Part shown: positions 63,480 to 64,000 of the stretch, in pieces
Layout of the letters: each line of letters begins with the position of its first letter
How positions within the stretch are numbered: the stretch's first letter is position 1
Assembly (NCBI RefSeq): GCF_003334315.1
Contig: NZ_QOWR01000025.1
Reading direction: 5' to 3' (one strand)
Length of the DNA stretch: 64,000 nt
Source: Escherichia coli
Lineage (GTDB): Bacteria; Pseudomonadota; Gammaproteobacteria; Enterobacterales; Enterobacteriaceae
Translations under genes and position numbers: made by a program
Notes under the pieces: model-generated
Databases searched by the model: none
Told to the model about the DNA's origin: nothing
The model's input: only the letters and a program-made list of their open reading frames with translations

Positions 63480-63611
63480 TTTATTTATATTGCGAATATA
63501 AATATTTTCTGAAAATCATATCTCATCTCTTTCCTTAATTACGATTTTAGTTTAAACATCTCTTTGCGGAAATAATATAACTTCCTATAAATAAATATCA
63601 ATCCCATCTCC

Positions 63612-64000
63612 GGTAATGACTCCAACTTATTGATAGTGTTTTATGTTCAGATAATGCCCGATGACTTTGTCATGCAGCTCCACCGATTTTGAGAACGACA
63701 GCGACTTCCGTCCCAGCCGTGCCAGGTGCTGCCTCAGATTCAGGTTATGCCGCTCAATTCGCTGCGTATATCGCTTGCTGATTACGTGCAGCTTTCCCTT
63801 CAGGCGGGATTCATACAGCGGCCAGCCATCCGTCATCCATATCACCACGTCAAAGGGTGACAGCAGGCTCATAAGACGCTCCAGTGTGGCCAGAGTGCGT
63901 TCACCGAAAACGTGCGCCACAACTGTCCTCCGTATCCTGTCATACGCGTAAAACAGCCAGCGCTGACGTGATTTAGCACCGACGTAGCCCCACTGTTCGT
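63612..64000 (-). mobile_element. IS1 insertion sequence, partial (one terminal inverted repeat and the insB-encoding half; rest beyond window end)
   Basis: Terminal sequence ggtaatgactccaacttattgatagtgttttatgttcagataatgcccgatgac matches the IS1 end; translation matches InsB; IS1 is about 768 bp so roughly 380 bp is missing. Confidence 0.93.
63627..64000 (-). CDS. insB: IS1 transposase InsB (part of InsAB' fusion), 5' end outside window
   Basis: ORF-track 63627..63920 (...[69 protein letters not shown]...); frame stays open upstream to the window edge. Confidence 0.9.

Follow-up and report, generated by a model that had tools for sequence, protein, structure and literature searches.

The window, that is, the whole stretch of 64,000 nucleotides that was analysed, comprises the last 64,000 of the 66,960 nt of the draft contig QOWR01000025.1 (GCA_003334315.1), and window base 64000 is the last base of this contig. 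The two sequences are 100% identical over the stretch that was compared (window 50620-64000). The last core gene before the insertion element is folK (HPPK; 63000..63479, plus strand), a 159-aa ORF whose product is identical in sequence to WP_000215139.1, as annotated in the relatives. It is followed by the proximal 132 bp of the folK-yadN intergenic region (63480..63611), which is an exact match to K-12 157252..157121 and has a GC content of 24.2%. The sequence GGTAATGACTCCAACTTATTGAT... starts at 63612, directly 3' of this spacer, and the yadN start codon lies 237 bp downstream of the insertion point. In K-12 and in ten other E. coli contigs, folK is followed by yadN-yadV-htrE-yadM-yadL-yadK-yadC and then by panB, and the yad operon is reported to be H-NS-bound and repressed (PMC13245861). 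A scan of the K-12 folK-yadN intergenic region for consensus promoters and terminators gave no promoter in the yadN direction, with counts no better than those of shuffled sequences. Directly upstream, public annotations disagree on where pcnB (window 61585-63003) starts and give it 454, 465, or 472 aa; this disagreement is due to a non-canonical start codon, which also complicated exact-protein look-ups.

The element after the spacer is the IRR-proximal 389 of the 768 bp of an IS1 (63612..64000, minus strand), cut by the end of the source contig. Its right terminal inverted repeat (IRR) stands at the boundary with the spacer and is identical to the IRR end of K-12 IS1A; we take its extent at this site to be 63612..63634 from the inverted repeat length generally known for IS1. 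Over the first 261 nt (63612-63872), the window differs neither from K-12 IS1A nor from the IS1B-type copy of the relatives. The minus strand has a reading frame that runs uninterrupted from 64000 to a stop codon at 63627-63629, and its translation corresponds to the 3' part of insB (63627..64000), that is, the C-terminal 123 aa of InsB/InsAB'. This fragment passes the equivalog model NCBIfam NF033558 (transpos_IS1), scoring 123.7 bits where the cutoff is 100, and the gene call at this place in the source contig carries Pfam PF03400. The window therefore contains both hallmarks of the IS1 family, a terminal inverted repeat at the boundary and an IS1-type transposase (the InsB/InsAB' DDE domain), but only half of the element. 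In contrast, the IS1 at the same junction in the relatives is 768 bp long in 18 of the 19 complete genomes that we sampled (767 bp in the remaining one), is annotated with a 'programmed frameshift', and can be flanked by a 9-bp duplication. In sister drafts that share a GluQRS N128S marker, the contigs break 19-120 nt into the IS1 at the same junction. The IS1 fragment of the window is a repeat stub on which a draft contig ends. The earlier note had placed an IS1 terminal inverted repeat at about 63612, after an AT-rich 132-bp spacer, and had given yadN as the gene next to folK in K-12; the IRR match, the base composition and the K-12 annotation bear out both points.

Isolates of E. coli obtained from poultry, pigs, frogs, and human faeces are nearly identical to the window. 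The genome of AHM9C68I is colinear with window 1-50000, with nine SNPs and no indels, and all 48 annotated features in this 50 kb of AHM9C68I are complete, non-pseudogene core genes in K-12 order. This agrees with the earlier view of the IS1 as the only accessory DNA in the window. Closer to the junction, window 38612-63611 is ~100% identical to complete E. coli chromosomes that carry the same-junction IS1, with five SNPs in 25 kb. The earlier note had left the host as an IS1-bearing E. coli or Shigella, and the first of these holds. IS1 is highly expanded in Shigella, and the E. coli genome collection that was searched contains no Shigella and could not have returned a match to it, so that a Shigella genome with its typical IS expansion had to be considered as the source. 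However, a window that differs from E. coli isolates by nine SNPs in 50 kb and shares their IS1 junction, in a region where every feature of the relative is complete, intact, and in K-12 order, makes a Shigella origin scarcely credible, and we rejected it on the near-identity to E. coli chromosomes.

The closest complete genome differs from the window at 11 positions, nine in 1-50000 and two in 57300-63611. At least five of these alter proteins (RnhB E80D, CdaR V178M, BtuF R207H, GluQRS N128S, and a stop in yadW), at window positions 16009, 37747, 42898, and 61032 with the yadW stop at 44168, which is an unusually non-synonymous set for such a small number of SNPs. The stop in yadW (21 codons) is the nonsense change E8* relative to AHM9C68I; it is shared with a sister draft contig that is 100% identical over 20.8 kb, indicating that it is a trait of the subclade and not an error. 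In public assemblies, the protein variants are found in 36-54 index blocks and thus mark a small clade, while the subclade SNPs were found in no complete E. coli genome compared. In addition, mrcB carries a 9-bp indel at window 53551 relative to other E. coli loci, and the gene calls for PBP1b have 841 aa in this lineage and 844 aa elsewhere. Literature searches with the strain names of the relatives returned no sequence type, and a search with the accession QOWR00000000 returned no paper.

The position of the IS1 is shared by a restricted group of genomes. A 701-nt junction query was covered by a single place in 83 of 5,426 complete E. coli genomes; a few of these (KL53, HH107, and MDK6L1) carry their IS1 elsewhere, so that about 80 genomes share the exact junction and orientation. 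The locus is therefore strain-variable, as had been proposed. The carrier genomes show at least 40 IS1 match pieces, indicating that the carrier lineage is IS1-rich. Because the same site and orientation recur across this IS1-rich clade, the insertion most likely goes back by inheritance to a single ancestral transposition, which created the 9-bp duplication CCCATCTCC; this common descent we infer from the near-identical flanks rather than from a genome phylogeny. The junction of IS1 with folK+132 is thus a handy clade marker, present in ~1.5% of complete E. coli genomes. To this extent the earlier suggestion that the IS1 offers a clue to the host lineage stands, through its junction and not through its isoform.

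The undeleted state of the insertion is preserved in a few relatives. A query for a simple insertion, built from the IS1 IRL end, CCCATCTCC, and the K-12 downstream sequence, matched at 100% over 609 nt in six complete E. coli genomes, in which yadN is intact. The presence of both duplication copies in the six genomes points to an ordinary IS1 transposition with a 9-bp duplication as the ancestral event. The window itself contains only the left copy of the duplicated target site (CCCATCTCC, 63603..63611), recognized by comparison with the relatives that have the simple insertion. In both of the simple-insertion genomes that we inspected, 2017.04.03CC and ET5, htrE is already truncated.

In the other sampled carriers, the far side of the element has moved into the operon. 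We read the series from 19 sampled genomes with the junction and placed ten end points on K-12. The folK-side (IRR) junction is constant in all 19, while the other flank falls at 11 different points, none of which shows a duplication at the right flank in the deletion derivatives. Relative to K-12, the shortest deletion, of 969 bp, has its right-hand end in yadV. Deletions of 1867, 2153, and 2207 bp end in htrE, one of 4735 bp ends in yadM (11 genomes), those of 6886, 7210, 7259, and 7396 bp end in yadC, and the largest of the mapped deletions, of 7429 bp, ends in the yadC-panB spacer. The eleventh end point, that of WP7-S17, was not mapped on K-12 and leaves 387 nt of yadC. None of the deletions among the sampled junction carriers reaches panB. 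With a fixed junction, a varying far flank, no duplication at the deleted side, and an existing undeleted precursor, the sequences of the relatives describe a nested, one-sided, IS1-anchored deletion series into yadN-yadV-htrE-yadMLKC. The possibility raised before, that the IS1 interrupts or replaces the promoter or 5' end of the fimbrial operon, is realized among the relatives in both forms, as a simple insertion in six genomes and as the loss of 1-7.4 kb of the operon. Since only six of the ~80 carriers have the simple insertion and both of those inspected have a truncated htrE, the yad operon of the window's own strain is likely to be damaged or deleted; judged by the relatives, a deletion is far more probable than an intact operon.

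Further IS1 copies are found in the same region. The 8.5-kb yad locus of 2017.04.03CC (L057 240-8765) contains three, namely the copy at +132, a second of like orientation that splits htrE, and a third, oppositely oriented, at the 5' end of yadC, which together provide a ready substrate for deletion and inversion. In cM2a, a second IS1 of the same orientation lies in yadC with its own duplication. KL53 has an independent IS1 7-15 bp after the folK stop (L016 6196-6963) with the duplication TATATTGCG, and MDK6L1 has one inside yadN (L015 6662-7429) with the duplication TGGTTGTTG; both genomes show, in addition, a second internal deletion of the yad operon that is bounded by IS1. IS1 prefers AT-rich DNA. 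The clustering of IS1 at yad fits this preference together with the H-NS-bound state of the region, a connection that we would draw with caution.

From these structures, we consider it very probable that the IS1 end in the window was inherited at folK+132 and that the IRL side of the element then launched many one-sided yad deletions in the clade. In the proposed sequence of events, an ancestral IS1 would have transposed into the AT-rich, H-NS-silenced yad control region and duplicated CCCATCTCC. In the clade, the IRR junction is fixed, and the IRL side has been the origin of many independent one-sided deletions. These could arise by intramolecular transposition of the IS1, that is, by transposase-driven adjacent deletion, or through homologous recombination between the anchor and additional IS1 copies that had landed in the operon in the same orientation. 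Both routes are open, because same-orientation second copies exist in cM2a and 2017.04.03CC and the end products of the two routes are identical. The anchor copy has a private marker near its IRL end (T at element column 761), but the same T is present in the second IS1 copy of cM2a and the marker therefore does not separate the routes. The deletions are presumably bounded by folK and panB because the loss of either gene is counter-selected.

The earliest description of nested one-sided IS1 deletions, a classical behaviour of the element, comes from the gal region of E. coli K-12. Adjacent deletion and recombination between IS copies are the usual causes of missing duplications (PMC11708052), and the yad series resembles IS1-promoted events of this kind in its invariant junction, the lack of a duplication, the surviving precursor, and the stepwise larger deletions. 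It differs from them in that it extends across natural isolates rather than coming from a selection experiment, and it is seen in the relatives of the window only. There is also a likeness to IS insertions in other H-NS-silenced control regions. IS1 and IS5 insert upstream of bgl, in an H-NS-silenced, AT-rich control region, and the target at yad, with its 24% GC, likewise lies upstream of an H-NS-repressed operon; however, most of the yad descendants have lost the promoter and the 5' genes. Assays of bgl were used in PMC12428005.

In addition to its position, the IS1 in the window is distinguished by its sequence. All 14 differences from the IS1B copy of the relatives fall within an IS1F-like patch at 63880..63987. 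Over the 389 nt, the segment differs from IS1A at 15 positions, from the IS1B-type copy at 14, and from IS1F at 26, so that it is not identical to any one named K-12 isoform (IS1A/E, IS1B/C, IS1D, or IS1F) over its whole length but is a mosaic of two types, with columns 269-376 of IS1F type in an IS1A/B-type backbone. The InsB residues had been described as differing from the familiar TMATLGRLMS and as suggesting a non-K-12 isoform. They do differ from this IS1A/IS1B sequence, but they are of IS1F type, as in K-12's own IS1F. In element columns 262-389, the window has 14 mismatches to IS1B, 15 to IS1A, two to K-12 IS1F, and none to a mosaic IS1 that is carried by plasmids.

This plasmid mosaic ('IS1 family transposase', WP_223367361.1) combines an IS1A/B backbone with IS1F-like sequence in element columns ~261-507 and is 99.7% identical to the window, with one difference in 389 nt. 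The sole difference is at element column 261, where the window has the IS1A/B base (T). The mosaic is found on many plasmids of E. coli, Salmonella, Klebsiella, and Shigella, and also on pHNAH968-1 of AHM9C68I; with this wide distribution, the isoform says little about the lineage. On pHNAH968-1 (89.7 kb; L018 2709-6768), the mosaic IS1 lies near a second, frameshifted IS1 and an IS5 fragment, and plasmid-borne genes for a fimbrial usher, a chaperone, and a regulator are located nearby. The IS1 of phage P1, which would have hinted at an integrated P1-like plasmid, was rejected as a source, as the P1 copies are only 95.9% identical. Neither the ~73,500 IS1 places in complete E. coli genomes nor at least 15,700 places in PLSDB plasmids contain the exact 389-nt string of the window. 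This string could be a private recombinant, the result of a private SNP, or an assembly chimera, and the isoform of the window copy is not securely established because the contig ends inside the element.

The patch most likely arose by gene conversion or recombination of the resident copy with the mosaic IS1 that the relatives carry on plasmids. Comparable changes are seen at the same junction in other genomes. In the sampled complete relatives, 16 of the 18 full-length (768-nt) junction copies have the plain IS1B-type pattern. ET5 (L055 about 1033-1800) has IS1A-type bases at columns 325, 373, and 376 and is otherwise IS1B-type, and it has kept both 9-bp duplications; judging from its sequence, this patch, seen in a finished genome, arose in situ by gene conversion from another IS1 copy. 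The copy of WP7-S17 is fully IS1A-like.

Alternatively, the patch at 63880-63987 could be an artefact, in which the resident copy is IS1B-type and the assembler followed another isoform of the genome, such as a plasmid copy, at the multi-copy repeat on the contig end. We regard this as a possibility of some weight, though short of probable. The IS1 segment makes up exactly the terminal 389 nt of a draft contig, and other drafts of the subclade stop 19-120 nt from the IS1 end, as an unresolved repeat predicts. The plain IS1B-type pattern prevails in the complete relatives, the mosaic isoform is present on plasmids in the same cell in relatives, and the exact 389-nt combination was absent from the other IS1 copies searched; all of these would be expected from an artefact. 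On the other hand, a de Bruijn assembler outputs only k-mers that occur in the reads, so that the joint between columns 261 (T) and 269 (T) should be real, and the isoform patches at the same site in the finished genomes ET5 and WP7-S17 are themselves real.

A further account is that the mosaic IS1 reached the same nucleotide, in the same orientation, by an insertion of its own, with the site acting as a hot spot for IS1. In its favour, the target region is H-NS-bound and has a GC content of 24%, the yad locus drew many independent IS1 copies at other positions (KL53, MDK6L1, cM2a, and 2017.04.03CC), and the copy that WP7-S17 carries at the same junction is fully of IS1A type. However, the flanks of the window differ from those of the IS1B-type carriers by only five SNPs in 25 kb and nine in 50 kb, and the other independent insertions in the locus are all at different nucleotides. 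The first 261 nt of the window copy, including column 261, are IS1B-like and unlike the plasmid mosaic, which is better explained by conversion of a resident copy. A second, independent arrival at this nucleotide is therefore quite improbable, and an inherited insertion whose resident copy may have been converted remains our preferred reading.

The element itself is an IS1, of a known kind, and one-sided deletions belong to its textbook behaviour. Dozens of RefSeq genomes already have the insertion and the truncated fimbrial genes in their annotation, and a literature search for yadN together with IS1 found nothing relevant. For the window itself, the finding is of little consequence, being a standard IS1 stub at the break of a short-read contig, and it serves as a caution that a repeat at a contig end is unfit for calling IS isoforms or for inferring what lies beyond it. 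A broader reading combines three parts: the IS1 at +132 as the ancestral anchor, at least 11 independent yad deletions that are due to selection against the expression of Yad, or to IS1 being guided to the locus by H-NS, rather than to neutral decay, and a patch that is a real conversion by a plasmid IS1. We hold this combination to be rather unlikely as a whole. If its anchor part is true, the lineage would be globally spread, IS1-expanded, and plasmid-rich, occurring in poultry, pigs, frogs, and humans in Asia, Africa, and the Americas. If the patch is an in situ conversion, it would represent a flow of sequence from plasmid to chromosome between IS copies. The Yad fimbrial operon has been reported as a virulence factor of ExPEC (PMC13245861). 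In the relatives, a neat but minor by-product of this analysis is a natural set of IS1-anchored nested deletions that erase this H-NS-silenced fimbrial operon step by step.
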